Source: an uncultured Rhodospirillaceae bacterium
GTDB taxonomy: Bacteria; Pseudomonadota; Alphaproteobacteria; MPNO01; UBA2964
Assembly (NCBI GenBank): GCA_964492555.1
Contig: CAZBKQ010000005.1
Span: 8,503 to 71,580 of the forward strand
Length of the DNA: 63,078 nucleotides
Direction: 5' to 3'
Shown: in pieces, positions 5,754-40,925 of the stretch
Position numbering within the stretch: the stretch's first letter is position 1
How the letters are laid out: every line of letters begins with the position of its first letter
Translations under genes and position numbers: made by a program
The notes under the pieces: model-generated
Told to the model about the DNA's origin: nothing
The model's input: the letters and a program-made list of their open reading frames with translations, nothing else
The model's database searches: none

Positions 5754-5764
5754 GCCCCAAAAAA

Positions 5765-5783: not shown

Positions 5784-5870
5784 CTCATCGGGGTGCCGCT
5801 CATAGGGTGCGCCGCGCATGAAACGGGGCCCGGAAACCGGCCGGTCAGATCATAATTTGGGACGAGGAAA

Positions 5871-9232: not shown

Positions 9233-9239
9233 GGAGGGA

Positions 9240-11214: not shown

Positions 11215-11216
11215 AT

Positions 11217-12311: not shown

Positions 12312-12320
12312 GAGGTTATT

Positions 12321-12968: not shown

Positions 12969-13085
12969 ACGAGAAGCCTAGGGCAATTACGCGCTCCCGT
13001 CGCGTTTGACGGCTATTTCGGCGGGGCATAGACTTTTCCCAACGACCGGAAAACCGGTGAATTTCAAAACATCGGAGGGCGCATT

Positions 13086-13937: not shown

Positions 13938-13950
13938 AGGAGTAACCGAG

Positions 13951-25985: not shown

Positions 25986-27848
25986 CTAGTTCAGTGAGGT
26001 GTGTACATCGACCAGCGCGACCTGCCCGCCTTCGACCGCCTTGACCGCGCGTTCGAACGCGCCCTTGAGGTCTTTCGGATCTCTCACCGGTTCTTCGGCA
26101 AAGGCGCCATAGCCGCGCGCGACCATGCAGTAATCCGGGTCGGGTCCGACCATGCGCTGGCCGATCCAGGCGTTCTCCGCCGGACGGCCACGCCGATTGG
26201 CGAGGGTGATCTGATGTTCCTCGTCATTGCCGAATGAGGTGTTGTTGTGCAGCACGATCAGGATCGGGATTTTGTAATGCGCCGCGGTCCAGATCGCCGC
26301 CGGACCCATGGTGAAGTCGCCATCGCCGATAATCGCGACGGTGAACTTGCCCTGGTCGCGTCCGGCGAGAGCGGAGCCGATGACGCCCGCCGCGCCATAG
26401 CCGATGCCGCCGCCGATGGAGTTGGACATGAACTGCCCCGCCCCGTCGAATTCCCAGATACCGTCATACCAGGCCCGGTAATTGCGCGACGCGAGCAGCC
26501 AGTCCTTGTCCTTTACGGCGTTGAACAGCTCCGCCGTCATGCGGGGCAGGTAGATCGGCACCTTGTCCCACTGCGCCATCATGACTTCCTTCTGCTCCGC
26601 GCGCAGCTTGTCGTGGATTACGGAAATCTCCTCGCGGCGTTCGACGGCGCGTTTGAGCCAGGCAGGTTCGCCTTCCGCGCGTTTGGTCAATTCGGCAACA
26701 AGTTGATTGACGCCATAGAGGTTATCGGCCTGCATCTGGATATCGACCGGTTGCAGCGGTCCGCCCAGATGGGTCCAGTGTTCGATCGAGAAATCGTTGA
26801 GCGACAGGTCGATAACGGTCTGCTTCTTTTTCTCGACCGCCTGACCCGCGCCGCGGGCGCCCTCATAGGCACCGACATTGTTGGAAATATCCAGGCAATC
26901 GACACACAGGATGGTGTCCGCCTTGCCGAGGAATTCCCGCTTGTATTCGCCTTCCGACTTGGTCCGGCCGAAGCTGCAATTCAAATTCTGCGGATGGTTG
27001 GATGGCATGCAGATAATGTCGTGCCCGTCCTGATAGGCGGCGCCGGTCATTTCGACCAGCTGTTTCATCGGCTCTGTCGATTCCGCCAGATAACCGATGC
27101 GGCCGCCGAAGATCAGCGGCCAGTCGGCATCTACCAGTGCGTCCGCCGCCGCTTCGACCTGTTCCCGCGGGGCCGCGATGGGGGCGGCAGGCTGATAGCG
27201 CGGCAGGGACATATCCGGCAAGGTCACCCCGTCCGGAATATCGTCCTCCTGGATTTTGGCATCGATCGAGACATAGGTGGGGGAGCAGGGCGCGCTGGTG
27301 GCGATCCGCTGGGCCCTGGCCATGGAGTCCAGAATGGCTTGAAGGGTAACCGGTTCGTCGGTCCATTTGGTGACGTCCCGGACGATATCGCACTGCGCAT
27401 TAGCGGTGTGTATCCAGTCGGTTTTGCGGCGATGGGCCGGATCCATCGGGCCTGATCCACCGAGGACGACGACCGGCGCGCGATCCGCCATCGCGTTATA
27501 AAAGGCCATTACCGCGTGCTGCAGCCCGACCAGGTCATGAACAAAAGCTAGCGCCGGCCGGCCGGTGGCTTTCCAGTAGCCTTGCGCCATGGCGACCGCC
27601 ATTTCCTCATGCGCGACGAGAATGATCTGCGGTTTGTGGTTTCTTGTGTGATTGACCAGGCTGTCATGCACGCCGCGAAAGGACGATCCCGGGGTCAGGA
27701 AAAGGTAATCGTGCCCCATTTCCCCCATCATTTCCGCGATCAGGTCAGAACCGTACTCGGCCTTGGGCTGGTTGTCGGGCAAGTTGATCGGCGCTTCCGA
27801 AACGAATTCCGGCGCGGCGGGGTAGTTGTCGTTGATCTTGTCGCTCAT
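25986..27848 (-). CDS. ThDP-dependent enzyme T1, divergent long subfamily (acetolactate synthase / benzoylformate decarboxylase superfamily); substrate unknown
   Basis: 620 aa. Catalytic Glu context VAHEEMAV, subfamily signature PGSSFRGVHDSLVNH, and ThDP motif IGDGDF...VLHNN. RBS GGAGG. Confidence 0.85.
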   Translation of the reverse strand: MSDKINDNYPAAPEFVSEAPINLPDNQPKAEYGSDLIAEMMGEMGHDYLFLTPGSSFRGVHDSLVNHTRNHKPQIILVAHEEMAVAMAQGYWKATGRPALAFVHDLVGLQHAVMAFYNAMADRAPVVVLGGSGPMDPAHRRKTDWIHTANAQCDIVRDVTKWTDEPVTLQAILDSMARAQRIATSAPCSPTYVSIDAKIQEDDIPDGVTLPDMSLPRYQPAAPIAAPREQVEAAADALVDADWPLIFGGRIGYLAESTEPMKQLVEMTGAAYQDGHDIICMPSNHPQNLNCSFGRTKSEGEYKREFLGKADTILCVDCLDISNNVGAYEGARGAGQAVEKKKQTVIDLSLNDFSIEHWTHLGGPLQPVDIQMQADNLYGVNQLVAELTKRAEGEPAWLKRAVERREEISVIHDKLRAEQKEVMMAQWDKVPIYLPRMTAELFNAVKDKDWLLASRNYRAWYDGIWEFDGAGQFMSNSIGGGIGYGAAGVIGSALAGRDQGKFTVAIIGDGDFTMGPAAIWTAAHYKIPILIVLHNNTSFGNDEEHQITLANRRGRPAENAWIGQRMVGPDPDYCMVARGYGAFAEEPVRDPKDLKGAFERAVKAVEGGQVALVDVHTSLN

Positions 27849-27925
27849 TGGCGTTTTGGCCTCCCAGAAAAACTGGCGGCCATAATCTCTTAGCGACCCT
27901 GTTTCCGCAATGGCTCCGGGGCGGG

Positions 27926-28831
27926 TTATGAAAAAATGCCGGAACCTTCGACGAGGCTGCTGATCCGCGGGATCAACGGTTTACGGAAATCGTCGTTCCA
28001 GATCATCTCGAACTCGATCTGAAGCGGGTTGCCGATCGGCCGGGTTTCGATCTCGACCGAAAGGGTGGCGGAGGCGGGGACAAGCGCCACGCCCTCATGC
28101 GCCGCCAAGTAGGGCATGATCGCGCGGAATCCGATGTCTTGCGGATTGATCTCAGGCGCGAATCCTGCCGCCCCGCACCGTTCGGTCAGGCCTTTGAGAA
28201 AGAGCGGTTCATTTTTCTGGATGGGGGCAAGGGTGAAAACCCGTCCCCGTAAGTCGCGCCAATCAAGCGCGGGCTTTTTCGTGAGCGGGTCTTTTCGGGG
28301 CATGGCGACGACCAACGGTTCACTGACCAGCGGCGCCGTGGAGATACCCGCCATTTTCTGAAATCCGTTCGCCGGCGGTTGGAGAATGCCGATATCGATT
28401 TTTCCGGCGCGCAGCGCGTCGAGCTGTTCGGGGCTGGAATGCGCCAGCAAGGTAAAATCGACTTTCGGGAATTCCAATCTGAGATAGGAAATCAGCTTTG
28501 GCGTTACCGCCGACATGGCGCGCTGCGTGCTGGCGATCCGGATTTTCTCGCCCTGACCGGTCGCGGCGGCGCGGATGCGGTCGACGAGCCGTTCTGATTG
28601 AGCCAGGAGGTGCCTTGCTTCATCCAGCAGTTGTTCGCCGATCGGCGTAAGGTTGGTGCCCTGCCTGTCGCGTTCCAGGATGCGGGCGCCGAGGATATCT
28701 TCCAGCCGTTTGATCCGGACACTAACCGCCGACTGGCTGGTCGCGAGGCGTTTCGCCCCACGGGCAAAATTGCGTTCTTCGGCGACGGCGACGAAGGCGC
28801 GCAACAGCTGCAGATCAATCCGGTAATCCAT
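27926..28831 (-). CDS. LysR-family transcriptional regulator
   Basis: 301 aa. N-terminal wHTH LQLLRAFVAVAEERNFARGAKRLATSQSAVSVRIKRLE. It is divergent from the ThDP/FMN-dehydrogenase operon at 29090. Confidence 0.9.
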   Translation of the reverse strand: MDYRIDLQLLRAFVAVAEERNFARGAKRLATSQSAVSVRIKRLEDILGARILERDRQGTNLTPIGEQLLDEARHLLAQSERLVDRIRAAATGQGEKIRIASTQRAMSAVTPKLISYLRLEFPKVDFTLLAHSSPEQLDALRAGKIDIGILQPPANGFQKMAGISTAPLVSEPLVVAMPRKDPLTKKPALDWRDLRGRVFTLAPIQKNEPLFLKGLTERCGAAGFAPEINPQDIGFRAIMPYLAAHEGVALVPASATLSVEIETRPIGNPLQIEFEMIWNDDFRKPLIPRISSLVEGSGIFS

Positions 28832-28835
28832 ATCG

Positions 28836-28854
28836 TGATCGTAAATCAGTATCA
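28836..28854. promoter_or_regulatory. Candidate LysR-type box (TGAT-N11-ATCA)
   Basis: Dyad TGAT (28836-39) - 11 nt - ATCA (28851-54) fits the generic LTTR T-N11-A pattern. It sits 5 nt upstream of the lysR start, in the 258-nt divergent region. Confidence 0.3.
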
Positions 28855-29089
28855 GCTAAGCGCAAAGTGAGATTTCAGGAATTCAGGCCGGTGCCGTTGA
28901 CGCGGTATCGGGTGGGTCATACGCTCTTTCCATAAGAAAAATCCCGTCGGGGAGGCCAATCGCCAGAGGTAGCCAATGCCGTGCGAAACGCGCGGTAAGG
29001 TCTTTGTGCGATATGTTCCGTTTCCCCCGTGGGATATTCATCCATCGCCTCCGGCGTATCGGGGGTTGCGGCAACAGGGGAGACCATCA

Positions 29090-30811
29090 ATGCCCAAAAA
29101 GGTTATCGAAAACTGCACCGTTTCGGATGCATATCTGGCGGTGCTGGCCGATCGTGGCGTCGATTATCTGTTTGCCAATGCCGGTACGGATTTCGCGCCC
29201 TTGATCGAAGCGTTGGCGAAGGCGCAGGCCTTGGGCACGCCTCATCCGATCCCCATTACATGCCCGCATGAAAACACCGCGCAGCACATGGCGATCGGGT
29301 ACTACCTTGCCACCGGGCGACCGCAGCTCACCATGATGCATGTGAATGTCGGTACCGCGAACGGTATGAACGGGCTTCTTAATGCGTCGCGCGGTCAGGT
29401 GCCGATGATTTTTTCCGCGGGCCGCACGCCGACCAACGAAGACTCTCTGAAAGGCCACCGCACGCTGGATATCCACTGGACCCAGGAAATGTTCGACCAG
29501 GGGGGGATGACCCGTGAGGCGGTGAAGTGGGATTATGAACTTCGCAATGCTGAGCAGGTCGAAACGGTTATCGACCGGATTCTGAGCGTCATTATGAGTG
29601 ACCCCAAGGGGCCGGCCTATCTGTCGCTGCCGCGCGAGGTTCTGGCGCTTGAAATCGACCGGTTCGAATATGAATCGCCGGGCCGTATTCAGCCCGCCGC
29701 GCCTTCCATGCCGAATACCGCCGCGCTTGATGAAGCGGCCGCCATCCTTGCCGGGGCGGAAAATCCGGTAATCATCACCAACTGGGCGGGCCGCAATCCG
29801 GGCGTCATGCCGGCGCTGTGCGCGCTGGTGGAAGAATACGCCATCCCGGTGGTCGAATACCGTAACCGCTATGTCGCGATCCCGCGCAATCATTCGATGT
29901 ATGCGGGCGGCAATCCGAACCCTTATGTCGAGAATGCCGACGCCATTCTGGTGATCGATTCCGCGACACCCTGGCTGCCCTCGCAGGTTAATCCTTCGGA
30001 GGATTGCAAGGTCATTCATATCGCGCCCGATCCGCATTATTCCTACCTGCCGATCCGCGGCTTCCGCGCCGATATCGCACTTTCCTGCGATTCCGCGCTG
30101 GGTATCACCGCGCTGCACGGGGCCATGTCGGCGCACAAGAAATCCGGCGACGCGTATCGCGACAAGCGCCGCGCGGCAACGGAAGAGGCGCACACGGCAT
30201 TGGAGGAAAGCTGGGCGAAGAAGCTGGAGCAAGTAAAGGACCAGACACCGCTGCATCCGGCCTTTATTTCGCATTGCATCTCGCAGATCGCCGATTCCGA
30301 AACCATTTTCGCCAAGGAATCCCAGCTTCAGGTTCAGTATCTGGATACATCCAAACCGACCAAAATTCTCAATGCAGGGGCGTCTTCCGGGCTCGGCCAC
30401 GGGATGGGGGTCGCCCTCGGCGCCAAGCTCGCCCACCGGGACAAGCTGGTCATCGGTACGCATGGCGACGGGTCCTATATGTTCAACTGTCCGGTTTCCG
30501 CCCATTACGTCGCGGCGGAGCAGGAACTGCCCATCCTCACGATCGTCTTCAATAACCAGAAATGGCAGGCGGTGCGGGGTTCGGCCCTGTCCCTTAACCC
30601 GGACGGCTATGCGGCAAAGGCGAACCAGCCGCCTCTGATGTTCTTTACCGTTGATCAGCATTACGAAAAGGCGGTCGAGGTGTCCGGTGGTTACGGTGAG
30701 CAGGTAAATGATCCGAAGGACATGATGCCGGCTCTGGAACGCGCCCTGAAGGCGGTCACGGTGGAGAAGCGGCAGGCGCTGCTGAACGTCACCGCATCCG
30801 ACCCGACCTGA
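29090..30811 (+). CDS. ThDP-dependent enzyme T2 (acetolactate synthase-like fold, distinct subtype)
   Basis: 573 aa from the ATG at 29090 (RBS GGGGAG; the track ORF 28976 extends upstream without support). Motifs CPHENTAQHMA and HGDGSYMF...VFNN. Confidence 0.85.
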   Translation: MPKKVIENCTVSDAYLAVLADRGVDYLFANAGTDFAPLIEALAKAQALGTPHPIPITCPHENTAQHMAIGYYLATGRPQLTMMHVNVGTANGMNGLLNASRGQVPMIFSAGRTPTNEDSLKGHRTLDIHWTQEMFDQGGMTREAVKWDYELRNAEQVETVIDRILSVIMSDPKGPAYLSLPREVLALEIDRFEYESPGRIQPAAPSMPNTAALDEAAAILAGAENPVIITNWAGRNPGVMPALCALVEEYAIPVVEYRNRYVAIPRNHSMYAGGNPNPYVENADAILVIDSATPWLPSQVNPSEDCKVIHIAPDPHYSYLPIRGFRADIALSCDSALGITALHGAMSAHKKSGDAYRDKRRAATEEAHTALEESWAKKLEQVKDQTPLHPAFISHCISQIADSETIFAKESQLQVQYLDTSKPTKILNAGASSGLGHGMGVALGAKLAHRDKLVIGTHGDGSYMFNCPVSAHYVAAEQELPILTIVFNNQKWQAVRGSALSLNPDGYAAKANQPPLMFFTVDQHYEKAVEVSGGYGEQVNDPKDMMPALERALKAVTVEKRQALLNVTASDPT

Positions 30812-30825
30812 TCCGCGGATTGGGC

Positions 30826-31926
30826 ATGAGGCACATCACACTTGAGAACGCTGGCTCGCTCCAGCAGATCGCGGTCATGGCGCGGCGCAATCTGACGCGC
30901 AATGTCTGGGACTATCTGATGGGCGGATCGGAATCGGAAACCACGTTGAAGCGCAACCGGCTTGGCTTCGATTGCTGGGGGTTGCGGCCGCGTATCCTGC
31001 GGAGCGTGGCGGAGGTCGACCCCGGGGTGAATTTCCTGGGCAAGCATATCCGCCTGCCGGTGATGCTGGCGCCGATCGGCAGCCTGCAGGAACTGCATCC
31101 CGATGCGGCTATGGCGACGGCGCAGGCGGCGGCGGAAATGGGCACGATCAGTTTCATGAGCTCGGTCACCCAGCCGTCTCTGGAAGAGGTCGCCGCCTCG
31201 ACAAACGCGCCCAAGGTCTATCAGCAATATATTCGCGGCGACGATGACTGGCTGGACGGCCAGGTAAAGTGCGCCGTCGATGCCGGTTTTGATTTCTTCT
31301 GCCTTACGGTCGACACGGCGGTCTATAGCCGCCGTGAACGCGATCTTATAAAACGCTGGGCGCCGGCCTCGCGCCTGACCAGTGTCGACGGGTTCCGCTG
31401 GCAGTCGGCATTCACCTGGGACAACGTCAAGCGTTTCAAGGACAAGCACGACATTCCGCTGATCATCAAGGGCATCGGCTGCGCGGATGACGCCGCAATG
31501 GCGGTCGAACATGGCGCGGCCTGCGTTTATGTGTCCAACCATGGCGGGCGCCAGCTCGATCACGGACGCGGCTCGATAGAGGTGCTGCCGGAAGTCGCCG
31601 ACGCGGTCGGCGGCAAGGCGGCCATCGTCATGGATGGCGGTATTATGCGCGGCACCGATGTGGTCAAAGCGATGGCGCTCGGCGCGACCGCCGTCTGCAT
31701 CGGGAAATTGCAGGGGCTCGGACTCGGGGCCGGCGGCAAGGACGGCGTCGTCACCATGATGCGCCTGCTGGAAGACGAAATTCGGACCACCATGCAGCTC
31801 ACCGGGCTGCATAATTTCGAAGAGTGCGACAGGAGCTTTATCGAACCAGCGGAGCCGGTTGTGGCGCCGCACCAGATCAGCCCCTATCCCCATATAGAGC
31901 TACCGGAACTGGAGTATGGAAGATGA
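30826..31926 (+). CDS. FMN-dependent alpha-hydroxy-acid dehydrogenase/oxidase (L-lactate / mandelate / glycolate oxidase family), H1
   Basis: About 366 aa. The active-site segment VSNHGGRQLDHG is present. The start is ATG 30826 or TTG 30820. Its stop overlaps the next ATG (ATGA at 31923-31926). Confidence 0.88.
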   Translation: MRHITLENAGSLQQIAVMARRNLTRNVWDYLMGGSESETTLKRNRLGFDCWGLRPRILRSVAEVDPGVNFLGKHIRLPVMLAPIGSLQELHPDAAMATAQAAAEMGTISFMSSVTQPSLEEVAASTNAPKVYQQYIRGDDDWLDGQVKCAVDAGFDFFCLTVDTAVYSRRERDLIKRWAPASRLTSVDGFRWQSAFTWDNVKRFKDKHDIPLIIKGIGCADDAAMAVEHGAACVYVSNHGGRQLDHGRGSIEVLPEVADAVGGKAAIVMDGGIMRGTDVVKAMALGATAVCIGKLQGLGLGAGGKDGVVTMMRLLEDEIRTTMQLTGLHNFEECDRSFIEPAEPVVAPHQISPYPHIELPELEYGR

Positions 31927-33731
31927 CAGAACACCTAAAACAGTTTGACCGGCCGCAAAATCTGGGAAATCCCCAGATGGGCTGGGCCAGCGACGTAGCG
32001 GCGGAGATGATGCGCCGTTGCGGCATCAAATACGTGTCGCTGAACCCCGGGGCTAGCTATCGCGGCGTTCACGATTCAATCGTCAACTATCTCGGCAATG
32101 AAGAGCCGCAGATGCTGATCTGTCTGCATGAGGACCACGCGGTGCATGTTGCGCAGGGTTACGCCAAGCTGACCGGCGAACCGATGGGCTGCTTCCTGCA
32201 TTCCAATGTCGGTCTGATGCACGGTCTGATGGGTATCTTCAATGCCTGGTGTTATCGCGCGCCGATGTTGATCATGGGCGCGACCGGGCCTGTGGATGCG
32301 CCGCTGCGCCGTCCCTGGATTGACTGGATCCATACCGCCAAGGACCAGGGCGCGCTGCTGCGCTTCATGGTGAAATGGGATGACGAGCCGCGCTCAGCCG
32401 GCGCGATTGTCGAATCCATGGCGCGGGCGAACCAGATCATCCGGTCGGAACCGACTGGCCCGGCCTATATCTGCTTTGACGCGGGGCTGCAGGAATCGGC
32501 GCTCGAGGAAGAAATCGAGATGCCGGATATCGCGAACTATCAGCCCTCCGATCCGCCGCGCGCTTCCGCCGACGCGGTGCGCGAAGCGGCTGATATGCTG
32601 CTGGCCGCGAAGAACCCGGTGATGATGCTGGGCCGTATGGCGCGGACTGAGGAGGCCTGGAACAAGCGGGTGCAGCTGGCGGAGCTTGTCGGCGCCGGCG
32701 TGCTGACCAATCTGCGCAACCCGGCCTGCTTCCCGTCCGATCATGCGCTGCATATCGGCCGCCCGGCGGGCAGGCTCGCCGGATATGCGGCTGACGCGAT
32801 CAGGGACGCCGACGTCATCCTGTCGCTCAACTGGCTCGATTTCGGCGGCACGCAGCGGCTGATGAGCGGGCAGGGCGGCATTTCCGGCAAATGCATCCAT
32901 GTCTCGCTGGAGCAATATCTGCATAACGGGTTCGGGATGGAGCTGTTCGAGCTTCCCAAAACCGATCTCAACATCAATGCCGATCAGGATGCCTTTGTCG
33001 AACAGCTGCTGGAGGAAGTTTCCAACCGGCTCGACGGCAAGTCGAAATGGGACGGTTCGTCCAAGGGGCCGGAAGCACCGGAAGTGCAGCCGATCGCGGA
33101 TCGGGACGCGGCGGCGGATATTCTGCCGGCCGATATCGTCACTGCGCTGGCCGAAGCGCAGGGCAATCGCAAAATCAGCCTCAACCGCGTCAGTTCCGGC
33201 GGTGTCGGGCCGACCTATGAGTTCACCCACCCCTGGTCCTATCTGGGCCATGACGGGGGCGGCGGGCTGGCCTCCGGGCCGGGCACGTCGGTCGGCGCCG
33301 CGCTGGCGGTTGCCGATACGGACTGGCTTGCGGTTTCCGTGCTGGGCGACGGCGATTTCATGCAGGGCAATACCGCTCTCTGGACCGCCGCGAAATACCG
33401 CATTCCGATGCTGGTCATCATCTCGAACAACCGTTCGAACTTTAACGATGAGCTGCATCAGGAAACGGTGGCGAAGGATCGCGACCGTCCGGTGGAAAAC
33501 CGCTGGATCGGCATGCGGATATCCGAACCGGACATCAATCTGAGCGAGCTTGCCGAATCTCTCGGATTCGAGACCGCGGGCGGGCCGGTCACCAAGATGG
33601 GCGACCTGCTGCCGGCGATCGAGAACGGGCTGAAGGCCGTTGAGGCCGGCAAGTGCCATTTCATCGATATCCATGTCGATACCGGATATGCCGAACCGCC
33701 GCTGATGCGTGGCGGGTCGAAAGGCGAGTAA
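31923..33731 (+). CDS. ThDP-dependent enzyme T3, divergent long subfamily
   Basis: 602 aa. Motifs NPGASYRGVHDSIVNY, CLHEDHAV, RRPWIDWIH and LGDGDF...IISNN. It is translationally coupled to the upstream gene. Confidence 0.85.
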   Translation: MTEHLKQFDRPQNLGNPQMGWASDVAAEMMRRCGIKYVSLNPGASYRGVHDSIVNYLGNEEPQMLICLHEDHAVHVAQGYAKLTGEPMGCFLHSNVGLMHGLMGIFNAWCYRAPMLIMGATGPVDAPLRRPWIDWIHTAKDQGALLRFMVKWDDEPRSAGAIVESMARANQIIRSEPTGPAYICFDAGLQESALEEEIEMPDIANYQPSDPPRASADAVREAADMLLAAKNPVMMLGRMARTEEAWNKRVQLAELVGAGVLTNLRNPACFPSDHALHIGRPAGRLAGYAADAIRDADVILSLNWLDFGGTQRLMSGQGGISGKCIHVSLEQYLHNGFGMELFELPKTDLNINADQDAFVEQLLEEVSNRLDGKSKWDGSSKGPEAPEVQPIADRDAAADILPADIVTALAEAQGNRKISLNRVSSGGVGPTYEFTHPWSYLGHDGGGGLASGPGTSVGAALAVADTDWLAVSVLGDGDFMQGNTALWTAAKYRIPMLVIISNNRSNFNDELHQETVAKDRDRPVENRWIGMRISEPDINLSELAESLGFETAGGPVTKMGDLLPAIENGLKAVEAGKCHFIDIHVDTGYAEPPLMRGGSKGE

Positions 33732-33759
33732 TCGGGCCGAGAGTTAAGGAGATAAATCA

Positions 33760-35550
33760 ATGAGCGATCTTACCAAGTACGACCGGCCCCAGAATGTCGG
33801 AAACCCCGTCATGGGCTGGGCCAGCGACGTCGCGGCGGAAATGCTGCGGCGGATGGGCATCAAATATCTGTCGATGAACCCGGGGGCCAGCTATCGCGGC
33901 TTCCACGATTCCATCGTCAATTATCTGGATAATAAAGATCCGCAGATGCTGCTCTGCCTGCATGAGGACCACGCGGTCCACATCGCGCAGGGCTATGCAA
34001 AGGCGACCGATGAGCCGATGGGCTGCATCCTGCATTCCAATGTCGGTCTGATGCACGGCACGATGGGGCTCTTCAACGCCTGGTGTAACCGGGTGCCGAT
34101 GGTGGTGATGGGGGCGACCGGCCCGGTGGACGCGCCGAAGCGCCGTCCCTGGATTGACTGGATCCACACCGAAAAGGACCAGGGCGCGATCATTCGGAAC
34201 TTCGTCAAATATGATGATGAACCGCGATCAGCACAGGCGCTGGCCGAAACCATGGTGCGGGTCAACAAGATGGTGCGCACCGAACCGACCGCGCCGGCTT
34301 ATGTGTGTCTCGACGCCGGTCTGCAGGAAAGCGCCATTGATCCGGACATGAAGCTGCCCGACGTATCCCGCTTTTTGCCGCCCGCTCCGACACCCGCCCC
34401 GCAAGCGGCGATTGACGAGGCGGCGGAGCTGCTGGCCAACGCGGAAAACCCTGTCATCATGGTTGGGCGCGTCAAGCGTTCCGAGAAGGGTTGGGACGAC
34501 CGCATCAAGCTTGCGGAAATGCTCGGCGCCGGGGTGGTGACCGACATGAAGACGGCAGCCGGCTTCCCGACTGATCATCCGCTGCATCTGGCGCCGCCGA
34601 GCAACCGGCCGCGCGAGGAAGCGGTGACCGAAATGAAGAACGCCGATGTCATCCTCGATCTCAACTGGGTCGATCTGGCGGGCACCTTCAAACTGGCCTT
34701 CGGCCGTGACGACGTCTCCGCCAAGGTCATCCACGTCTCCATGGACTCGCTGATCCATAATGGCTGGTCGTCGGATCACATGGGCATGCCCTTGGGCGAT
34801 GTCACCATGCTGGCCCAGACCGAGGCCGTGGTGGAGCAGCTTCTGGAAGCGCTGGAAGCCAGGCTCGGCGATAAATCCAAATGGGACGGCGAAAACAAGG
34901 GACGCACCCCGGATGTCGATACGACATTTGCCGACCTTAAACCCGAAGACCCGATTTCGGTCGAGGCGGTCACGCTCTGCGTCAACGAAGCCCGCAAGGG
35001 CCGCAACCTGACGCTCGCCAACGTCACCATCGGTTGGGCCGCGGACGGGTATCACTGGACCCATCCGCTGGATTATCTCGGCAATGACGGTGGCGGCGGG
35101 TTGGCCTCCGGCCCGGCGACCTCCATCGGTGCCGCGCTGGCGCTGAAGGATACCGACCGTACCGTGATGGCGGTGCTGGGTGATGGCGATACCATGCAGG
35201 GGGCGAGTTGCCTCTGGACCGCGGCGCATTATCAGATCCCGGTCCTGCTGCTGATCTCCAACAACCGGTCGAACTTCAATGATGAAATCCACCAGGAAAC
35301 GGTGGCGAAGATGCGCGACCGCCCGGTGGAGAACCGCTGGATCGGACAGCGTATCGACGATCCGGAGGTCCAGATCGAGAAATACGCCGCCTCGCTCGGC
35401 GTGGACTCTGCGGGCCCGATCACCACGGTGGGCGATCTGCTGCCCGCCATTCAGGAGGGGCTCAAGGCCGTCGATGCGGGCAAGCCGTATCTGCTGAACG
35501 TGCATGTGGAGAAGGGGTACGCAACCCCGCCGCCGGCGCGCGAAGCGTAG
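33760..35550 (+). CDS. ThDP-dependent enzyme T4, tandem paralog of T3
   Basis: 596 aa. Motifs NPGASYRGFHDSIVNY, CLHEDHAV, RRPWIDWIH and LGDGDT...LISNN. Confidence 0.85.
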   Translation: MSDLTKYDRPQNVGNPVMGWASDVAAEMLRRMGIKYLSMNPGASYRGFHDSIVNYLDNKDPQMLLCLHEDHAVHIAQGYAKATDEPMGCILHSNVGLMHGTMGLFNAWCNRVPMVVMGATGPVDAPKRRPWIDWIHTEKDQGAIIRNFVKYDDEPRSAQALAETMVRVNKMVRTEPTAPAYVCLDAGLQESAIDPDMKLPDVSRFLPPAPTPAPQAAIDEAAELLANAENPVIMVGRVKRSEKGWDDRIKLAEMLGAGVVTDMKTAAGFPTDHPLHLAPPSNRPREEAVTEMKNADVILDLNWVDLAGTFKLAFGRDDVSAKVIHVSMDSLIHNGWSSDHMGMPLGDVTMLAQTEAVVEQLLEALEARLGDKSKWDGENKGRTPDVDTTFADLKPEDPISVEAVTLCVNEARKGRNLTLANVTIGWAADGYHWTHPLDYLGNDGGGGLASGPATSIGAALALKDTDRTVMAVLGDGDTMQGASCLWTAAHYQIPVLLLISNNRSNFNDEIHQETVAKMRDRPVENRWIGQRIDDPEVQIEKYAASLGVDSAGPITTVGDLLPAIQEGLKAVDAGKPYLLNVHVEKGYATPPPAREA

Positions 35551-35585
35551 TCGGGCAGGCTTGCTCGCACGTTAACACCGATTGT

Positions 35586-35612
35586 CACCCCGGCCTCCGA
35601 GCCGGGGTCCAG
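35586..35612 (+). repeat. REP-like palindromic element, copy 1
   Basis: 8-bp stem accccggc (35587-94) / gccggggt (35601-08) with loop ctccga. It matches the reverse complement of 39105-39134 at about 24 of 27 positions. Confidence 0.55.
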
Positions 35613-35678
35613 TTGGCTATATCGGCGGTACTATGGATTGTCGGCTCTCGCCCGGCAACGACCTACAAAATTGCTGAG

Positions 35679-35707
35679 ATGCCCGGGCTTTGACCCGGGC
35701 ATTTTTT
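35679..35707 (+). terminator. Intrinsic terminator of the T2-H1-T3-T4 operon
   Basis: 9-bp stem atgcccggg / cccgggcat with a 6-nt loop, followed by T6. The same stem sequence recurs at 39070-39092. Confidence 0.8.
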
Positions 35708-35856
35708 GTAGAGAAATTACCCCTCCCCGGAGAGGAGTGGCGCTATTTTATTTGCCTCCCTCGTCACGAGGGGGAGGGCAAGGGCGGGGGTGTGGCAGCA
35801 CGACGTCCACCCGCCTATAATCACCAGAACGATTGCAAATTTCAGGGAGACACATC

Positions 35857-36261
35857 ATGGCAAAACTTCGTCACATCGCGCTGAGCGTCAGCGATCTGCA
35901 GACCAGCGCCAAGTTCTACGAGGAAGCCTTCGGGATGGAACGCGTCCGCGAATCCGACGTCGCGGTGATGCTTTCGGACGGTGTTGTGTCTCTGGCGCTG
36001 CTGTGCCTTGAGAAAAACGACAATGCGCCGGATGAGCGCGGTTCCGGCTATCGCGGGTTGCATCATATGGGCTTTCTGGTCGATAGCGTGCCGGAACAGT
36101 CGGAGATGGTCGAAGCCGCCGGCGGCAAATATCACGGACAAATACTCAATGTCGGCGCAGGCGAGGAATTCGAACGCAAATACCGCGATCCCGATGGGGT
36201 GGTGATCGATGTGTCCTCGCCCGAACACGCGACCTCGTCCTGGCGCGTGCCGGTCGAATAG
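35857..36261 (+). CDS. VOC-family protein (glyoxalase / bleomycin resistance / dioxygenase fold)
   Basis: 134 aa from the ATG at 35857 (RBS GGGAGA). Motifs LRHIALSVSDLQTSAKFYEEAFGM and YRDPDGVVIDV. Confidence 0.8.
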   Translation: MAKLRHIALSVSDLQTSAKFYEEAFGMERVRESDVAVMLSDGVVSLALLCLEKNDNAPDERGSGYRGLHHMGFLVDSVPEQSEMVEAAGGKYHGQILNVGAGEEFERKYRDPDGVVIDVSSPEHATSSWRVPVE

Positions 36262-36280
36262 TCGCGTGGGAGATTAGCCG

Positions 36281-36499
36281 GTGGCGAAGGACCAGATGTC
36301 GGAAGGGACGAAACTGATCGTTTCCACCCTGGTCGTCACCGGGCTGTTACAGGCGGTTTGCGCCTTCCTGCTTTTCTGGATACCGAACTGGTTTCCCTTC
36401 GGGGAAAGCGGGGCCCTGTTTCTCGGAATATTTTTTGTCGTCCTCGCCCTGGCGAGCATCGGCGGCGCGGTCTGGTTCAGGGTAAAGGTCGTGTATTAG
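36281..36499 (+). CDS. Small hypothetical membrane protein (two TM segments)
   Basis: 72 aa. GTG start after GGGAGA. Third positions are GC-rich. Hydrophobic segments LIVSTLVVTGLLQAVCAFLLFWI and ALFLGIFFVVLALASIGGAVWF. Confidence 0.5.
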   Translation: MAKDQMSEGTKLIVSTLVVTGLLQAVCAFLLFWIPNWFPFGESGALFLGIFFVVLALASIGGAVWFRVKVVY

Positions 36500-37161
36500 G
36501 GCTGTTTTCTGATCGTTCCCGTTCGGTTCGACCAGATACCGAGATGGCGGGCGATCTCTCGCACGTCTTTCGCGCTCTCACCGATCCGTGCCCTGATTTC
36601 CGGGCCGCAGTCGGCGGGCGAGACGCTGCTTGCCGCCTCGTCAACGATGTCTTCGGGGAAGGGCATGTCCTCGACACCGCGCCGGTCAATCGCCGTGGCG
36701 ACCATGTGGTAAAAAGCAAAGAAATCGGGGCGCATCGCGCGGGACAACTGACGGCAGACCCGTTCCAGCCCGTATCCCCATACCAGCCGCGGAAATTCGT
36801 TTCGGAGGTAAAGGTTGAAAACATCGACCTCATAGGGCTGGCCGCCGACCTCCTTCACCAGTTTCTTCGCGGTCGCCCGCGCCTTGGCGACGACGGGCTT
36901 TTGATCCTGCTTGCAGTCGGGATATTTCAGCGCGGTAAAGCGGGGGTCTTTCTGCGTCGTCTCATATAGCCTGTCATCGTCGGAGCGTTGCAGCGCGGCC
37001 CTGATCTGCAGGAAATTCCATAACAGTTCGAAGCCGCCTTCGCCGATTACCGTCTCGCAATCCCGGTTGGCGATATGCCCCTGCAGGACGGTGGCGAACT
37101 TGCCCATCCGCGCATCGAACGCCGACTGGGCATCAGCGGCTGGCGCGAACAGCAACAGCAC
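36496..37161 (-). CDS. Hypothetical secreted protein with four Cys; the true start is probably upstream at a non-canonical codon (ATT 37203 or CTG 37197)
   Basis: 221 aa from GTG 37161. The in-frame upstream codons give a complete signal peptide (Q)LKPFCRSAAATLVLLLFAPAADA/QS, and GAGGG lies 7 nt before the ATT. I recognise no family. Confidence 0.6.
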   Translation of the reverse strand: MLLLFAPAADAQSAFDARMGKFATVLQGHIANRDCETVIGEGGFELLWNFLQIRAALQRSDDDRLYETTQKDPRFTALKYPDCKQDQKPVVAKARATAKKLVKEVGGQPYEVDVFNLYLRNEFPRLVWGYGLERVCRQLSRAMRPDFFAFYHMVATAIDRRGVEDMPFPEDIVDEAASSVSPADCGPEIRARIGESAKDVREIARHLGIWSNRTGTIRKQP

Positions 37162-37213
37162 CAGCGTGGCGGCGGCGCTCCGGCAGAATGGTTTCAGCTG
37201 AATGACCGTGCCC

Positions 37214-38992
37214 TCAGGTCAGCATCGCCTTGCCCTTGCCCCGGCGGCACACCGTGTCGACCAGAGCGGGCTTGCCCTGCTTGACCTGTTCGATGGCGCG
37301 TTTCACGGCCGCCTGCACGTCATCGCCGTTCTCGATCGGCCCTTCGGCCCACCAGCCCTGGGAGCGGGCGAGACCCGCGAAGTCGGGATCGGGGTCCAGC
37401 AGGTCCATGCCGATATAGGCGCGGGACGGGTCGGTGCCGCGGTTATTGGCGATTACGATCTGGTGGTTCCAGTCATTGTAATAGGCGCGGTTATTGTACA
37501 TCACGATCAGCATCGGAATTTCGTACTTGGCCGCCATCCAGAGCGCGCCTGCGTCAAACATCAGATCGCCGTCGGGCTGAAGATCGATACAAAGCCGTCC
37601 GGTGCCTTTGTTGGCCAGCGCCACACCGAGCGAGGTTCCGATCTGCGTGCCGGTGCCGAGCTCCCGCCCGCCATGACAGTAAGGCCGGTCAAAATCCCAG
37701 AGACGGCGGGCCGCGTCATGCATGGTGCCGGCGGTCAGGACCCAGTCCTCATCCTTGATGACCTCCCAGATTTCCAGCGCCAGACGGCCGACCGTCATGG
37801 GTGTGGCGTCCCAGTCTTCCTCGGCTTCCTTCCGCCATTGGGTGCGCAGCGCGCGGTGTTTTTCGCCGATCATCTCGGTGCGGTTGGCGATCTTCTCGGC
37901 CAGCCCGTCGGTCTTCGCGATGCGTTCCTTTAACAGATCGGTCAGCATGGGTGAGGCCGTCACCACATCGGCGGTCATCCGCACATCGGGATAGAGCGTG
38001 CGCGCATAATCCATCGACCATTTGGAGATTTCCTGATCGGTCCAGCCGATATCGATCCATTTGGCGTTTTCATTGACGCTCGGCTTCACCGTCCGGGTGG
38101 ATATGTCGCGCACATGGGTGTGCTTTTCGAAATCGGCGACGTCGAGCAGCAACACCGCGTCCACGCCTTCGTAACAGGCCTGCTGGTCCATCGAGAGGTT
38201 CAGCGGGTGCGTGCCGGGGAAGTTGAGCCGTGAATTCACGTCCCAGACGCTGGCCCCCAGCGTTTCTGCCAGATCGACGACATGATCCCAGCCATGCGGC
38301 GGGCGGGCGGCGAAATCAGCGACAATCGCCGGGCGTTCGGCGGCGGCGAGAATATCGGCGGCCTCCGTAAGGGCCTGCGGGTCGGGCGCGGCCTGGGCCG
38401 GGACGCGCACGCCGTCTTCCGGCGGCATGGCGATTTCATGATCCAGTTCCGCTTCCTGCAGCCCCGCGTCGTAACACATATAGATCGGGCCCTGACGGCC
38501 GGTCATCATCACCGAATAGGCGCGGGCGAAGCTGTCCGGCACATAATCGACGGTGACGGGTTGGGCGTCCCATTTGACGTAATCGCGGATCACCTGGCCC
38601 TGCACATGGGCGGAATGGATCCAGTCAATGAACGGGCGGCGTTTGGTTTCGTCCACCGGGCCGGTGGCGCCGATGATGAAGACCGGTGCCCGGTCGAGAT
38701 AGGCGTAATAGACCCCCATCGGGGCGTGCAGCAGCCCGACCAGATTATGCACGATGGCGATCATCGGCTTTCCGGAATGACGGGCATAGCCATGCGCCAT
38801 CTGCACCGCGATTTTCTCATGGGTACACAGCATCATCGGCGGATCGTTCTCGCCGTAATTGACCAGGCTGTCATGAAGGCCGCGATAGCTCGCCCCGGGG
38901 TTCAGCGCGATTTGCTCGAACCCGAACTGCTTGATCAGGTCGACGATAACGTCCGACTGGTATTTGGTGTTGGATTTCTTGATGCCGCTCAT
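37214..38992 (-). CDS. ThDP-dependent enzyme T5, divergent long subfamily
   Basis: 592 aa. Motifs NPGASYRGLHDSLVNYG, CTHEKIAV, RRPFIDWIH and PDGDLMF...VMYNN. Confidence 0.85.
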   Translation of the reverse strand: MSGIKKSNTKYQSDVIVDLIKQFGFEQIALNPGASYRGLHDSLVNYGENDPPMMLCTHEKIAVQMAHGYARHSGKPMIAIVHNLVGLLHAPMGVYYAYLDRAPVFIIGATGPVDETKRRPFIDWIHSAHVQGQVIRDYVKWDAQPVTVDYVPDSFARAYSVMMTGRQGPIYMCYDAGLQEAELDHEIAMPPEDGVRVPAQAAPDPQALTEAADILAAAERPAIVADFAARPPHGWDHVVDLAETLGASVWDVNSRLNFPGTHPLNLSMDQQACYEGVDAVLLLDVADFEKHTHVRDISTRTVKPSVNENAKWIDIGWTDQEISKWSMDYARTLYPDVRMTADVVTASPMLTDLLKERIAKTDGLAEKIANRTEMIGEKHRALRTQWRKEAEEDWDATPMTVGRLALEIWEVIKDEDWVLTAGTMHDAARRLWDFDRPYCHGGRELGTGTQIGTSLGVALANKGTGRLCIDLQPDGDLMFDAGALWMAAKYEIPMLIVMYNNRAYYNDWNHQIVIANNRGTDPSRAYIGMDLLDPDPDFAGLARSQGWWAEGPIENGDDVQAAVKRAIEQVKQGKPALVDTVCRRGKGKAMLT

Positions 38993-39069
38993 GGGAGTCC
39001 CTGCTGTTTGATTGGTGCCGGAAATTTAGCAGGCGGGCGTGAGGGCGGAAAGGGTGGGCGCAAAACTGA

Positions 39070-39092
39070 ATGCCCGGGACGTGCCCGGGCAT
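39070..39092 (-). terminator. Intrinsic terminator after T6 (same stem as 35679-35702)
   Basis: 9-bp stem atgcccggg / cccgggcat with a 5-nt loop. On the minus strand it is followed by tcagtttt. Confidence 0.6.
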
Positions 39093-39104
39093 ATTTCCTT
39101 ATGA

Positions 39105-39134
39105 CTGGACGCCGGCTCGGGGGCCGGGGTCCAG
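39105..39134 (-). repeat. REP-like palindromic element, copy 2
   Basis: ctggac-g-ccggc (39105-16) / gccgg-g-gtccag (39123-34), 11 bp plus one mismatch, with a 6-nt loop. It shares the 12-mer gccggggtccag with 35601-35612. Confidence 0.55.
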
Positions 39135-39149
39135 ACTCTCTGTTCTTCC

Positions 39150-40925
39150 TTAGGCCGCTTCACCCCTGCGCCAGGTGATGATATCGACCAGCGCCGGTTT
39201 GCCGGATTTCACAACCTTGAGCGCTTCGCGGACAGCCGGCTGGATATCGGCAGGGTTCATGATCGGCCCTTCGGCCCACCAGTCCATGCCGCGGGCGATA
39301 TGGGCGAAGTCGGGCGCCGGGCCTTCCAGATCCATGCCGATATAGGCGCGTTCCGGATCGGTGCCTCGCTTGTTGGCGACCGAGATCTGATGCGCCCAGT
39401 CATTGTAATAGGCGCGGTTGTTGTACATCAGGCACAGCATGGGGATTTCGTACTTGGCGGCGATCCACAATCCACCGAGATCAAACATCAGATCGCCGTC
39501 GGGCTGGAGATTGACCACCACCTTGTCGGTGTCCTTGTAGGCCAGCGCCACGCCAAGCGACATGCCGAACTGCGTCGCCGTGCCGAGCTCGCGTCCCGGA
39601 TGACGGTAGGGCTTGTCGAAATCCCATATCTTGCGGACCCAGTCCTTCAAAGTCCCGGCGGACAGCACCCAGTCCTCGTCCTTGATGACCTCCCATATTT
39701 CGGCGGCCATGCGGGCTTCGTGCATCGGGTCGTGATCCCAGAATTTTTTCACGTCCTCCTGCCACTTGTCCCACTGGGCGTGGTGCTTGTCGCTGACGGT
39801 TTTTGTGCGGTCCGCGATCTTCTGCTGCAGCGCCGCATCGCCCGCGATCTTTTCCTTGCAGGCTTCGGTCAGGGCCGGGATGGCGTTCGCGGTGTCGGAC
39901 AGAATCCGCATATCCCAGTTATGATGCTTGTTGTAATCGGTCGCCCACTTGGAAATCTCGATATCGGCAAATCCGATATCGATCCATTTGCAGTCCGGCG
40001 TGGTAATCGCCTCCACTTGGCGGGTTTCCCAGTTGGGCTTGTGCGACCCCCGGGTCCAGTCCACCACGTCCAGCGCGCAGACCACATCCGCGCCCTTGAA
40101 TGCATCACCATGCATGGAAACGCTGAGCGGATGCTTGTTGGGGAAGCCGAGGCGCTTATTGATATCGAATACGCCGCAGCCGAGTGTTTCAGCCAGTTCC
40201 ACCGTATCGTCGAACCCGATCGGCGCACGGGCGGCATATTCCGTGAGCAGGATCGGATAGTCGGCGGCCAGCAACATATCCGCGGCCTCTCCGATCAGCT
40301 TGGGATCGGCGGCGAGACGCGGCGGCACCTTGATTGCCTCGGGCGGCGGAATTTCGATCTCCTCGGTCAGTTCGCCTTCCTGCAGCCCGGCGTCATAGAC
40401 CATGTAAACCGGACCCTGCGGTTCGGTCATCATGATGGAATAGGCGCGGGCGAAACTGTCCGGCACGCCATGAATGGTGCCGGGCTGATAATCCCACTTG
40501 GTGTAATCGCGGATGGCGGACCCCTGCGCGAAGGCGGTGTGAATCCAGTCGATAAACGGCCGGCGGAGTTTTTCATCCATCGGGCCGGTCGCGCCCATCA
40601 GGAAAATCGGGCAGCGGTCGATATAGGCGTAATAAACGGCCAAGGGCGCGTGCAGCAGCCCGACCACGTTATGGACGATGGCGGGCATCGGCTTGCCGAT
40701 CGCCTTGGCGTAGCCGTGCGCGATTTGCACCGCCAGCTTTTCGTGGTTGCACAGGATCATCGGCGGGTCGTCCTCGCCGTAATTCACCAGGCTGTCATGC
40801 AGCCCGCGATAGCTCGCGCCGGGGTTCAGCGGGATCGCCGGAAAATCGTATGCCTTGATCAGATCGACGATGATGTCTGACTGATAGCGTGTATTGGCCT
40901 TGCGGATAAACTGGTCTTCGGACAT
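39150..40925 (-). CDS. ThDP-dependent enzyme T6, tandem paralog of T5
   Basis: 591 aa. Motifs NPGASYRGLHDSLVNYG, CNHEKLAV, RRPFIDWIH and PDGDLMF...LMYNN. Confidence 0.85.
   Translation of the reverse strand: MSEDQFIRKANTRYQSDIIVDLIKAYDFPAIPLNPGASYRGLHDSLVNYGEDDPPMILCNHEKLAVQIAHGYAKAIGKPMPAIVHNVVGLLHAPLAVYYAYIDRCPIFLMGATGPMDEKLRRPFIDWIHTAFAQGSAIRDYTKWDYQPGTIHGVPDSFARAYSIMMTEPQGPVYMVYDAGLQEGELTEEIEIPPPEAIKVPPRLAADPKLIGEAADMLLAADYPILLTEYAARAPIGFDDTVELAETLGCGVFDINKRLGFPNKHPLSVSMHGDAFKGADVVCALDVVDWTRGSHKPNWETRQVEAITTPDCKWIDIGFADIEISKWATDYNKHHNWDMRILSDTANAIPALTEACKEKIAGDAALQQKIADRTKTVSDKHHAQWDKWQEDVKKFWDHDPMHEARMAAEIWEVIKDEDWVLSAGTLKDWVRKIWDFDKPYRHPGRELGTATQFGMSLGVALAYKDTDKVVVNLQPDGDLMFDLGGLWIAAKYEIPMLCLMYNNRAYYNDWAHQISVANKRGTDPERAYIGMDLEGPAPDFAHIARGMDWWAEGPIMNPADIQPAVREALKVVKSGKPALVDIITWRRGEAA

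Follow-up and report, generated by a model that had tools for sequence, protein, structure and literature searches.

What do the thiamine diphosphate (ThDP) enzymes catalyze that an uncultured marine Rhodospirillaceae bacterium encodes six times over within 15 kb of its genome, and why are there so many of them? The stretch analyzed here (the window; 63,078 nucleotides of contig CAZBKQ010000005.1) contains six full-length ThDP enzyme genes, T1 to T6, between positions 25986 and 40925 and a seventh, T7, at 58032 to 59708. Six genes of the same superfamily among 13 consecutive genes are far beyond what chance would produce. All seven reading frames are present as described in an earlier note, which had been made from the sequence without database searches, and the public gene calls for identical metagenome contigs (ENA ERZ27313062 k141_1042093, 63.4 kb, and four others) contain the same genes. 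Five of the products, T1 and T3 to T6, are most likely active ThDP/Mg2+-dependent enzymes of a large unnamed family, as judged from their sequences. We favor, at a probability of roughly 60%, the reading that these five are non-oxidative 2-oxo-acid decarboxylases resembling benzoylformate decarboxylase (BFDC), that they serve in modules converting a 2-hydroxy acid via a 2-oxo acid and an aldehyde to an acid, and that they were diversified by old tandem duplication.

T1 (25986 to 27848, minus strand; 620 amino acids [aa]) is a singleton clade of the new family. T3 (31923 to 33731, plus strand; 602 aa) and T4 (33760 to 35550, plus strand; 596 aa) are a tandem pair with 28 nt between them, and T6 (39150 to 40925, minus strand; 591 aa) with its downstream partner T5 (37214 to 38992, minus strand; 592 aa) is the second pair. 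T2 (29090 to 30811, plus strand; 573 aa), the first gene of an operon, and the acetohydroxyacid synthase (AHAS)-like T7 (minus strand; 558 aa) lie outside the family. The T2 open reading frame (ORF) extends upstream to 28976 (611 aa), but 29090 is the likely start, because the public gene calls use it and the alignment to the protein family model NF006203 begins at residue 46 of the 611-aa ORF. Pairwise identity is 58% for T3/T4 and 61% for T5/T6, falling to 33 to 34% between the pairs, 32 to 35% between T1 and the other four, 23 to 25% between T2 and any of the five, and 18 to 23% for T7. The Pfam domains TPP_enzyme_N, TPP_enzyme_M, and TPP_enzyme_C were matched in that order in all of T1 to T6 (the TPP_enzyme_M match scoring under the gathering threshold in T1, T5, and T6), and an AlphaFold2 model of T4 (predicted local distance difference test score, 86.7; predicted template modeling score, 0.91) has three alpha/beta domains, so that the retention of a middle domain, which the earlier note had deduced from protein length, is borne out.

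Two signatures had been proposed to set the five apart. The N-terminal one, NPG(A/S)S(Y/F)RGxHDS(L/I)VN, is indeed present in all five (T1 reads TPGSSFRGVHDSLVN), whereas the second, RRP(W/F)IDWIH, holds exactly for T3 to T6 and not for T1, which has RRKTDWIH, with T instead of I before DWIH. RRPWIDWIH and close variants of it were found across the wider family. Both signatures are absent from T2, which reads NAGTDFAPLIEALA and HRTLDIHWTQE at these places; its segment HRTLDIHW is comparable in length to the one in the family, and T7 lacks such a segment. The catalytic glutamate (E69 in T4), which aligns with Glu47 of BFDC, is invariant in all seven proteins, and the residues of the Mg/diphosphate-binding motif (GDG-X(24-27)-NN in the superfamily, xDGD...NN here; in T4, D475, G476, D477, N501, and N502) are invariant in the five. 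The spelling GDG given for this motif in the earlier note applies to T1 (GDGD..NN) and not to T5 and T6, which read PDGD; P, S, or A occupies this first position in many clusters of the family. On proper alignment no ThDP-binding or catalytic residue is missing from any of the five.

The same note had counted T2 among the classical members of the superfamily, and this did not hold. T2 belongs to NF006203 (PRK08327, "thiamine pyrophosphate-requiring protein"; 641.1 bits, cut-off 456), which is the closest relative of the subfamily and itself has no known function. NF006203 is also the top NCBIfam model for the five new-family proteins, aligned end to end, but with scores below the cut-off (T1, 220.7; T3, 222.6; T4, 217.9; T5, 244.9; T6, 229.5 bits). 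A profile built from the five gave at least 964 bits for its own members, 200 for T2, and 108 for T7. When representatives of clusters at 50% identity were compared with this profile, all 150 clusters listed scored at least 349 bits, and the family therefore comprises at least 150 such clusters. In a neighbor-joining tree of 90 full-length sequences, T1, T3/T4, and T5/T6 fell into three separate subclades of one radiation, with T2 outside. Profiles and tree thus suggest that the new family and PRK08327 are sister groups in the decarboxylase superfamily with PYR-M-PP domain order, a placement that is silent on chemistry, as no function is known for PRK08327 either. T7 falls into NF006052 (PRK08199; 850.5 bits, cut-off 539), which bears only a generic name.

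The inability of the earlier note to match the five to a characterised enzyme proved to be well founded, as they stand apart from every curated equivalog and every solved structure. The BFDC model NF005485 (EC 4.1.1.7) is the second-best NCBIfam match for four of them and the third for T6, with 101 to 145 bits against a cut-off of 493. Because the scores likewise stay below the cut-offs for AHAS, oxalyl-CoA decarboxylase (OXC)/2-hydroxyacyl-CoA lyase (HACL), Xsc, and PRK08327, we propose that the family works like BFDC, not that its members are BFDCs. The best scores in a sequence search of the PDB were 86.5 bits for T4 and 95 bits for T2 (AHAS, BFDC, and benzaldehyde lyase). The top Foldseek matches of the T4 model were the 4-hydroxybenzoylformate decarboxylases of P. 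fluorescens Pf-5 (6QSI) and R. jostii RHA1 (7ORX) and then BFDC MdlC (1BFD), with template modeling scores of ~0.8 normalized to the target and the same domain architecture; AHAS from plants, fungi, and bacteria followed, as did the acyloin synthase BbmA, all of these matches being 18 to 23% identical. Neither the sequence search nor the fold search of the PDB found a solved structure more than 23% identical to the family. In their source records the homologues are called "thiamine pyrophosphate-binding protein" or "acetolactate synthase large subunit(-like)", with one automatic "mdlC" label. We were not able to identify an experimentally defined member in the source protein names, the PDB, or the literature, and literature searches on the family, PRK08327, and the candidate pathways found no study of any member.

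The genes next to the five suggest a pathway. T2 is followed after 14 nt by a gene for an FMN-dependent 2-hydroxy-acid oxidase/dehydrogenase (30826 to 31926, plus strand; Pfam FMN_dh), which overlaps the start of T3 by 4 nt, and T4 follows T3 after 28 nt; T2, FMN_dh, T3, and T4 are one operon. The best NCBIfam matches of the FMN_dh protein (L-lactate dehydrogenase, lactate oxidase, and MftD) are all below cut-off. Upstream of T1, and divergent from the T2 operon, is a LysR-type regulator gene (27926 to 28831, minus strand; Pfam HTH_1 and LysR_substrate), and two more FMN_dh genes lie in tandem at 44363 to 45439 and 45477 to 46553 (minus strand). The full block, in the order T1, LysR, T2, FMN_dh, T3, T4, VOC, T5, T6, molybdenum (Mo) hydroxylase, hydrolase, FMN_dh, FMN_dh, recurs in six contigs from related metagenome-assembled genomes (MAGs; loci L008 to L013, in our numbering of homologous loci), being complete in L008 and present wholly or mostly in L009 to L013. 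The ThDP genes of these blocks are 76 to 95% identical (T3 orthologues, 76 to 93%), T5/T6 is inverted in L011 and L012, and the tandem FMN_dh genes are kept in L008 to L012. Genes of the PRK08327 type and of the new family share one operon in the window, in L008 to L014, and in L016.

In the mandelate pathway, as outlined in PMC7760541 (citing Tsou 1990 and Wei 2019), a 2-hydroxy-acid dehydrogenase is followed by BFDC and then by an aldehyde dehydrogenase (ALDH). By analogy, the operon and the surroundings of homologues elsewhere seem to repeat the logic of mandelate and aryl-C2 pathways, with an FMN-dependent 2-hydroxy-acid dehydrogenase upstream of the decarboxylase and aldehyde oxidation downstream, often beside protocatechuate or ring-oxygenase genes. 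In the window an FMN_dh gene is inside the operon with two more nearby, and a Mo hydroxylase stands in place of ALDH. We propose that a 2-hydroxy acid would be oxidized by one of the three FMN-dependent enzymes encoded in the stretch, or, as an alternative entry, that an amino or imino acid would be converted by the enzyme of the ornithine cyclodeaminase (OCD) family adjoining T1. The 2-oxo acid would then lose CO2 on ThDP to give an aldehyde, and this would be oxidized to an acid one carbon shorter, here probably by the Mo hydroxylase and elsewhere by an adjacent NAD(P)-dependent aldehyde dehydrogenase. The paralogues, in three clades and with two old tandem pairs among them, would differ in their substrates, and the operon would be controlled by the LysR regulator.

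The genes for these additional steps flank the ThDP genes. The OCD/mu-crystallin gene (24865 to 25974, minus strand; Pfam OCD_Mu_crystall) lies 11 nt downstream of T1, a pairing kept in L008, L011, and L012; all of its NCBIfam matches are below cut-off, and it could supply a 2-oxo or imino acid. The large subunit of the Mo hydroxylase (aldehyde oxidoreductase/CoxL-like; 41092 to 43428, plus strand; Pfam Ald_Xan_dh_C and MoCoBD_1/2) is encoded divergently from T6. Its best NCBIfam match is the glyceraldehyde dehydrogenase alpha subunit (565.7 bits, cut-off 790), and homologues occur near family members in L019, L023, L029, L044, L046, L061, L065, and L098. As the window contains no ALDH gene, this protein is the candidate for the aldehyde-oxidizing step. 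After it comes an alpha/beta hydrolase gene (43439 to 44335, plus strand; Pfam Abhydrolase_1/6) with weak matches to esterases and lactonases, which is kept in L008, L009, L011, and L012. Between the two tandem pairs is a gene for a small protein of the VOC/glyoxalase fold (35857 to 36261, plus strand; Pfam Glyoxalase); it is kept in L008 and L009, and a Glyoxalase gene also adjoins a T5-like gene on a TARA scaffold (L098). A scan for promoters gave fewer sigma-70-like sites than in shuffled sequence and was uninformative.

Outside the related blocks, neighbors were counted at 70 loci in which the T4-like homologue is single copy. ALDH genes were found within 3 kb at 14 of these and as the immediate co-directional neighbor at 9. 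TctC/Bug binding-protein genes occurred at 26 of the 70 loci, as did genes for a cytoplasmic protein of the periplasmic binding protein (PBP) fold, similar to 4,5-dihydroxyphthalate decarboxylase, and gentisate-dioxygenase-like genes occurred at 6. Several plasmids carry more complete arrangements. On pCAR3 of Novosphingobium KA1, a LysR gene and then ALDH-ThDP adjoin ring-hydroxylating oxygenase genes. Phaeobacter and Thioclava plasmids have ALDH, a nadC paralogue, the ThDP gene, a 2-hydroxyacid dehydrogenase, MarR, a TRAP transporter, a Rieske oxygenase, and an alpha-hydroxy-acid oxidase, the Phaeobacter locus also lying beside pcaHCD, pcaF, and 3-oxoacid CoA-transferase genes. An Acidovorax plasmid has TctC-ThDP-ALDH with an alpha-hydroxy-acid oxidase gene nearby; an Antarctobacter plasmid has 4,5-dihydroxyphthalate decarboxylase, LysR, and ThDP-ALDH-GMC oxidoreductase; and a Salipiger abyssi plasmid, with a T1-like gene (45.6% identity), has TctCBA, ALDH-ThDP-ALDH, an alpha-hydroxy-acid oxidase, and LysR. 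All six plasmids (pCAR3 and those of Phaeobacter, Thioclava, Acidovorax, Antarctobacter, and Salipiger) thus have ALDH beside or near the ThDP gene, and four of them also encode an alpha-hydroxy-acid oxidase or a 2-hydroxyacid dehydrogenase. Genes of the pca type or for Rieske/phthalate dioxygenase reductase (PDR) oxygenases occur as well, and in three cases (pCAR3, Antarctobacter, and Salipiger) a LysR gene adjoins the family member. On the open-ocean scaffold L098 the T5-like gene is accompanied by FMN_dh, VOC, cupins, a complete three-subunit Mo hydroxylase, a TRAP transporter, and a FAA hydrolase. For proteins that had seemed to match nothing, the contexts give a fairly ordinary functional prediction, that of a BFDC-like 2-oxo-acid decarboxylase, and suggest a role in the breakdown of carboxylated, probably aromatic, organic acids.

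At L089 (Phaeobacter inhibens pP92_a), L091 (Thioclava), and L090 (Thalassospira), the T4-like gene adjoins or lies near an additional nadC gene (for quinolinate phosphoribosyltransferase), and a Rieske oxygenase, a PDR/VanB reductase, a Gfo/Idh/MocA dehydrogenase, or an alpha-hydroxy-acid oxidase is encoded there also. Phthalate operons characteristically contain a nadC paralogue (ophE in Burkholderia cepacia DBO1), a hint that the substrates may be aryl-glyoxylates with a carboxy substituent, such as 2-carboxybenzoylformate. In three Binatia loci (L025, L036, and L054), a PRK08327-like gene (38% identity to T2) lies ~4.7 to 5.4 kb from a new-family gene on the opposite strand, together with an arylmalonate-decarboxylase-like (Amdase) gene and several TctC genes; enzymes of the T2 type and of the new family therefore co-occur in very distant lineages.

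A comparison with BFDC at the level of the active site gave a mixed picture. In BFDC, structures and mutants have identified Ser26, His70, and His281 as active-site residues, and His70 has a catalytic role. His70 aligns with H92 of T4 (HMMER alignment), a residue shared without exception by the family and T2. Ser26 aligns with Ala43 of T4 (Ala in T3 to T6 and Ser in T1), with an invariant Ser next to it. No counterpart of His281 was found, and no conserved His is present in that region, which is not alignable. Where BFDC has the pocket residues A460, L461, and F464, the family seems to have the nearly invariant N507, D508, and H511 (positions extrapolated 4 to 8 residues past the aligned NN block), and its pocket therefore looks polar and basic, not hydrophobic as in BFDC. 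The family proteins also differ from BFDC in being 60 to 90 residues longer and in having a conserved Arg/His/Asp set of their own, with R46, H49, D50, R128, R129, D133, H136, N507, D508, H511, and Q512 (T4 numbering) as the family-specific polar or charged residues.

Many of these residues belong to the two signatures, which fall on the AHAS segments GGASMEIH and PRRMIGTDAFQE. In the HMMER alignments, the first signature (NPGASYRGxHDS) pairs with YPGGASMEIH of AHAS and NPGSNELP of BFDC, and the second (RRPWIDWIH...Q) with PRRMIGTDAFQ of AHAS. In AHAS and BFDC, the corresponding stretches form part of the wall of the active site or substrate channel; in AHAS, both border the channel for substrate and herbicides. 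Since the family-specific polar and charged residues are in such channel-lining segments, the substrates are probably 2-oxo acids that carry carboxyl or hydroxyl groups and are probably aromatic, not plain benzoylformate. In the T4 monomer model, confidence is lowest at the second signature and in the segment after NN, which would fit mobile loops at an active site formed at the dimer interface. The sites that are fixed differently between T3 and T4 orthologues are concentrated around residues 400 to 430 and 530 to 540 of T4, at the start of the PP domain and roughly where the BFDC pocket lies, a faint indication of divergence near the active site. The FAD-contact motif RFDDR of AHAS aligns with NWVDLAGT in T4, and FAD binding by the family seems unlikely.

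Several observations weigh against BFDC-like decarboxylation. The reaction type is drawn from context and distant homology; all five proteins score far below the BFDC cut-off; and the Ser26, His281, and pocket positions differ as described. No NAD-dependent ALDH gene is present in the window, and genes for the partner FeS and FAD subunits of the Mo hydroxylase were found nowhere in it. The FMN_dh neighbor, prominent here, is rare outside the marine lineages (3 of the 70 loci), acyl-CoA synthetase, AMP-ligase, or acyl-CoA dehydrogenase genes occur at a few homologue loci, and an aldehyde-oxidizing neighbor is equally compatible with an aldehyde-releasing lyase. In addition, T5-like genes in L096 (Telluria beijingensis; 4042 to 6819 and 10205 to 13024) and L094 (Phyllobacterium; 10720 to 13522) adjoin a recurring gene pair, encoding a hypothetical protein of ~400 aa and an EutA-like protein (PF06277), that is unlike the hydroxy-acid/aldehyde modules.

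The number of copies is a separate question from the chemistry. The family is neither rare nor orphan: it is spread over Alpha-, Beta-, and Gammaproteobacteria, Binatia, and Actinobacteria with thousands of database members, and a scan of one genome per GTDB species gave at least 600 pattern matches, 595 of which were confirmed among the matches listed. The closest genomes among those listed are marine or estuarine Rhodospirillaceae and other alphaproteobacterial MAGs. Members 46 to 53% identical to T4 are found in Xanthobacter, Bosea, Amorphus, Salipiger bermudensis HTCC2601, Polaromonas, Ramlibacter, Pigmentiphaga, Binatia, and Solirubrobacterales and on plasmids of Phaeobacter, Sinorhizobium, Cupriavidus, and Novosphingobium KA1 (pCAR3). 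Usually the gene is single copy, and 66 of the 70 loci L018 to L087 have one family copy only. In the more distant marine MAGs L014 to L017, a single T gene, equidistant from T3 and T4 (55 to 58%), follows T2 and FMN_dh (L014 and L016) or FMN_dh (L015 and L017); T3/T4 is therefore a lineage-specific tandem duplication. The pairs are not very recent duplicates, as their members are 58 to 61% identical and both copies have orthologues of 71 to 95% identity elsewhere. The order T6-T5 is kept in another 5-Mb genome (L097; 71% and 77% identity, 18-nt gap). Every catalytic position is invariant in all five copies, which also excludes a degenerate or regulatory subunit in each pair. Old, retained duplications with every copy intact would fit diversification, as the earlier note had supposed; its further suggestion that substrate range was diversified can be put forward as a conjecture. 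Two split genes were encountered among the homologues, the T1 orthologue of MAG JAYQSM01 (L008, 2547 to 4097) and a T4-like gene of Acidovorax plasmid pACP3.2 (L092, 6974 to 8781), each in two ORFs or coding sequences, by either a frameshift or an assembly error.

The pairs could be explained differently if T3 with T4 and T6 with T5 formed heteromeric ThDP enzymes with two nonidentical sites each, which could coexist with decarboxylase chemistry. Active sites in this superfamily are located at the dimer interface. The members of each pair are adjacent, co-directional, and old, the T3-T4 order is kept in L008 to L013 and several metagenome contigs just as T6-T5 is in L097, and every copy retains all catalytic residues. 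However, a family that is mostly single copy presumably had a homomeric ancestral enzyme, the single relatives in L014 to L017 are what a lineage-specific duplication predicts, and neither partner has degenerated. A strong hairpin also separates T6 from T5, which are 157 nt apart: at 39070 to 39092 (minus strand), a perfect GC-rich palindrome of 9 bp (ATGCCCGGG-ACGTG-CCCGGGCAT) is followed by a T-run. This was the top terminator-like site in a scan and may terminate or attenuate transcription between the two genes. We regard heteromeric pairing as unlikely, though worth bearing in mind.

Different chemistry would be expected if the five were ThDP-dependent C-C lyases, carboligases, or hydrolases acting on oxidized alicyclic or aromatic intermediates made by the oxygenases and short-chain dehydrogenases/reductases (SDRs) of the region, for example, in acyloin cleavage of the benzaldehyde lyase type, HACL/OXC chemistry, or cleavage of 1,2-diketone rings as by CDH and IolD. 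The aldehyde-oxidizing neighbors suit such enzymes as well as they suit decarboxylases, the best PDB sequence matches of T2 include benzaldehyde lyase and HACL-like proteins, and the acyl-CoA synthetase, AMP-ligase, and acyl-CoA dehydrogenase genes at a few homologue loci would agree with it. The SDRs, luciferase-like monooxygenases, and seven TauD-family proteins of the window could make hydroxyketones or diketones, and a pocket this polar and rich in Arg might accommodate CoA or phosphate. However, the scores of the five are far below the cut-offs for HACL (59 to 98 bits against 600) and Xsc (TIGR03457; 58 to 101 against 676), the models for HACL, Xsc, and glyoxylate carboligase together giving about 55 to 101 bits against 557 to 791, and the OXC and IolD models were not among the best 25 NCBIfam matches. 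CoA ligase and CoA transferase genes are absent from the window, and the tightest linkage in it is to FMN-dependent 2-hydroxy-acid oxidases, which make 2-oxo acids. The invariant equivalent of BFDC His70, a residue with a catalytic role in BFDC, may point the same way. On balance, a lyase-type function seems improbable.

That the five are AHAS isozymes or other FAD-dependent members, such as pyruvate oxidase or glyoxylate carboligase, is very improbable: the name "acetolactate synthase large subunit" in source records, a place among the top sequence and fold matches (A. thaliana AHAS, 1YBH, aligns over its full length with a score comparable to that of BFDC), and an RR...Q segment resembling PRRMIGTDAFQ are outweighed by AHAS model scores of 42 to 122 bits against cut-offs of 509 to 1084, by 18 to 21% identity to AHAS structures, by the absence of RFDDR from T4 and subthreshold middle-domain matches in T1, T5, and T6, and by a catabolic context with neither an ilvN/ilvH-like gene for a small regulatory subunit in the window nor branched-chain amino acid genes nearby. 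Organosulfonate chemistry of the Xsc type, suggested by the TauD, SsuD/SfnG-like, and SsuA-like neighbors, was rejected also, as the scores are far below cut-off, a phosphate acetyltransferase (pta) gene is absent among the called genes of the window, and the SsuA-like protein is instead related to a decarboxylase. That protein (ORF at 19417 to 20412, plus strand; 331 aa, PBP/SsuA-like fold) has no Pfam match above threshold and no evident signal peptide, shares 34% identity along its whole length with a protein named 4,5-dihydroxyphthalate decarboxylase in RefSeq, and is related to the cytoplasmic PBP-fold proteins encoded at the homologue loci.

The window as a whole is a catabolic island in which decarboxylase-family genes of several mechanistic classes are unusually frequent. 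Four UbiD genes (at 3561, 5871, 15374, and 22795), three amidohydrolase genes of the Amidohydro_2/LigW/ACMSD type (47983, 50035, and 51291), an Amdase-like gene (17640), two PrpD-family genes (52531 and 60824), a gene of the phosphoenolpyruvate mutase/isocitrate lyase superfamily (57211), and the 4,5-dihydroxyphthalate-decarboxylase-like gene accompany seven TauD-family oxygenases, two luciferase-like monooxygenases, three FMN_dh proteins, several SDRs, and TctABC tricarboxylate transporters. The genes in this list that were scanned against NCBIfam all scored below the equivalog cut-offs. The TauD genes include two tandem pairs (8381 to 10091 and 13086 to 14802), and the luciferase-like monooxygenase genes are a convergent pair with ends 2 nt apart (10099 to 12311); paralogue pairing is therefore general in the island and not special to the ThDP genes. 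A more speculative extension, which we consider doubtful, is that the ThDP paralogues are one arm of a decarboxylation island, that the family acts on polycarboxylated 2-oxo acids, with tandem pairs that could also be two-site heteromers, and that pelagic and estuarine Rhodospirillaceae strip carboxyl groups stepwise from carboxyl-rich dissolved organic matter. If this were true, benzenepolycarboxylates, lignin-derived acids, and CRAM-like aromatic or alicyclic compounds would be the targets.

The superfamily, its chemistry, and the pathway logic were already known; what stands out is a subfamily that is distinct and large, with an unusual local sixfold concentration when T2 is included. ThDP enzymes of this superfamily are widely used as biocatalysts for decarboxylation and asymmetric carboligation, and the segments distinctive of the new family are exactly those that determine which substrates such enzymes accept. 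A large and widely distributed family that is labeled "acetolactate synthase" or "TPP-binding protein" therefore marks a clear gap in annotation and at the same time offers new catalysts, perhaps for 2-oxo acids that are polar or carboxylated. Cultivable carriers exist in Phaeobacter, Salipiger, Thalassospira, and Novosphingobium KA1 (pCAR3), which makes the question directly testable, and the substrates of these enzymes would reveal which carboxylated acids marine and estuarine Rhodospirillaceae remove from dissolved organic matter.

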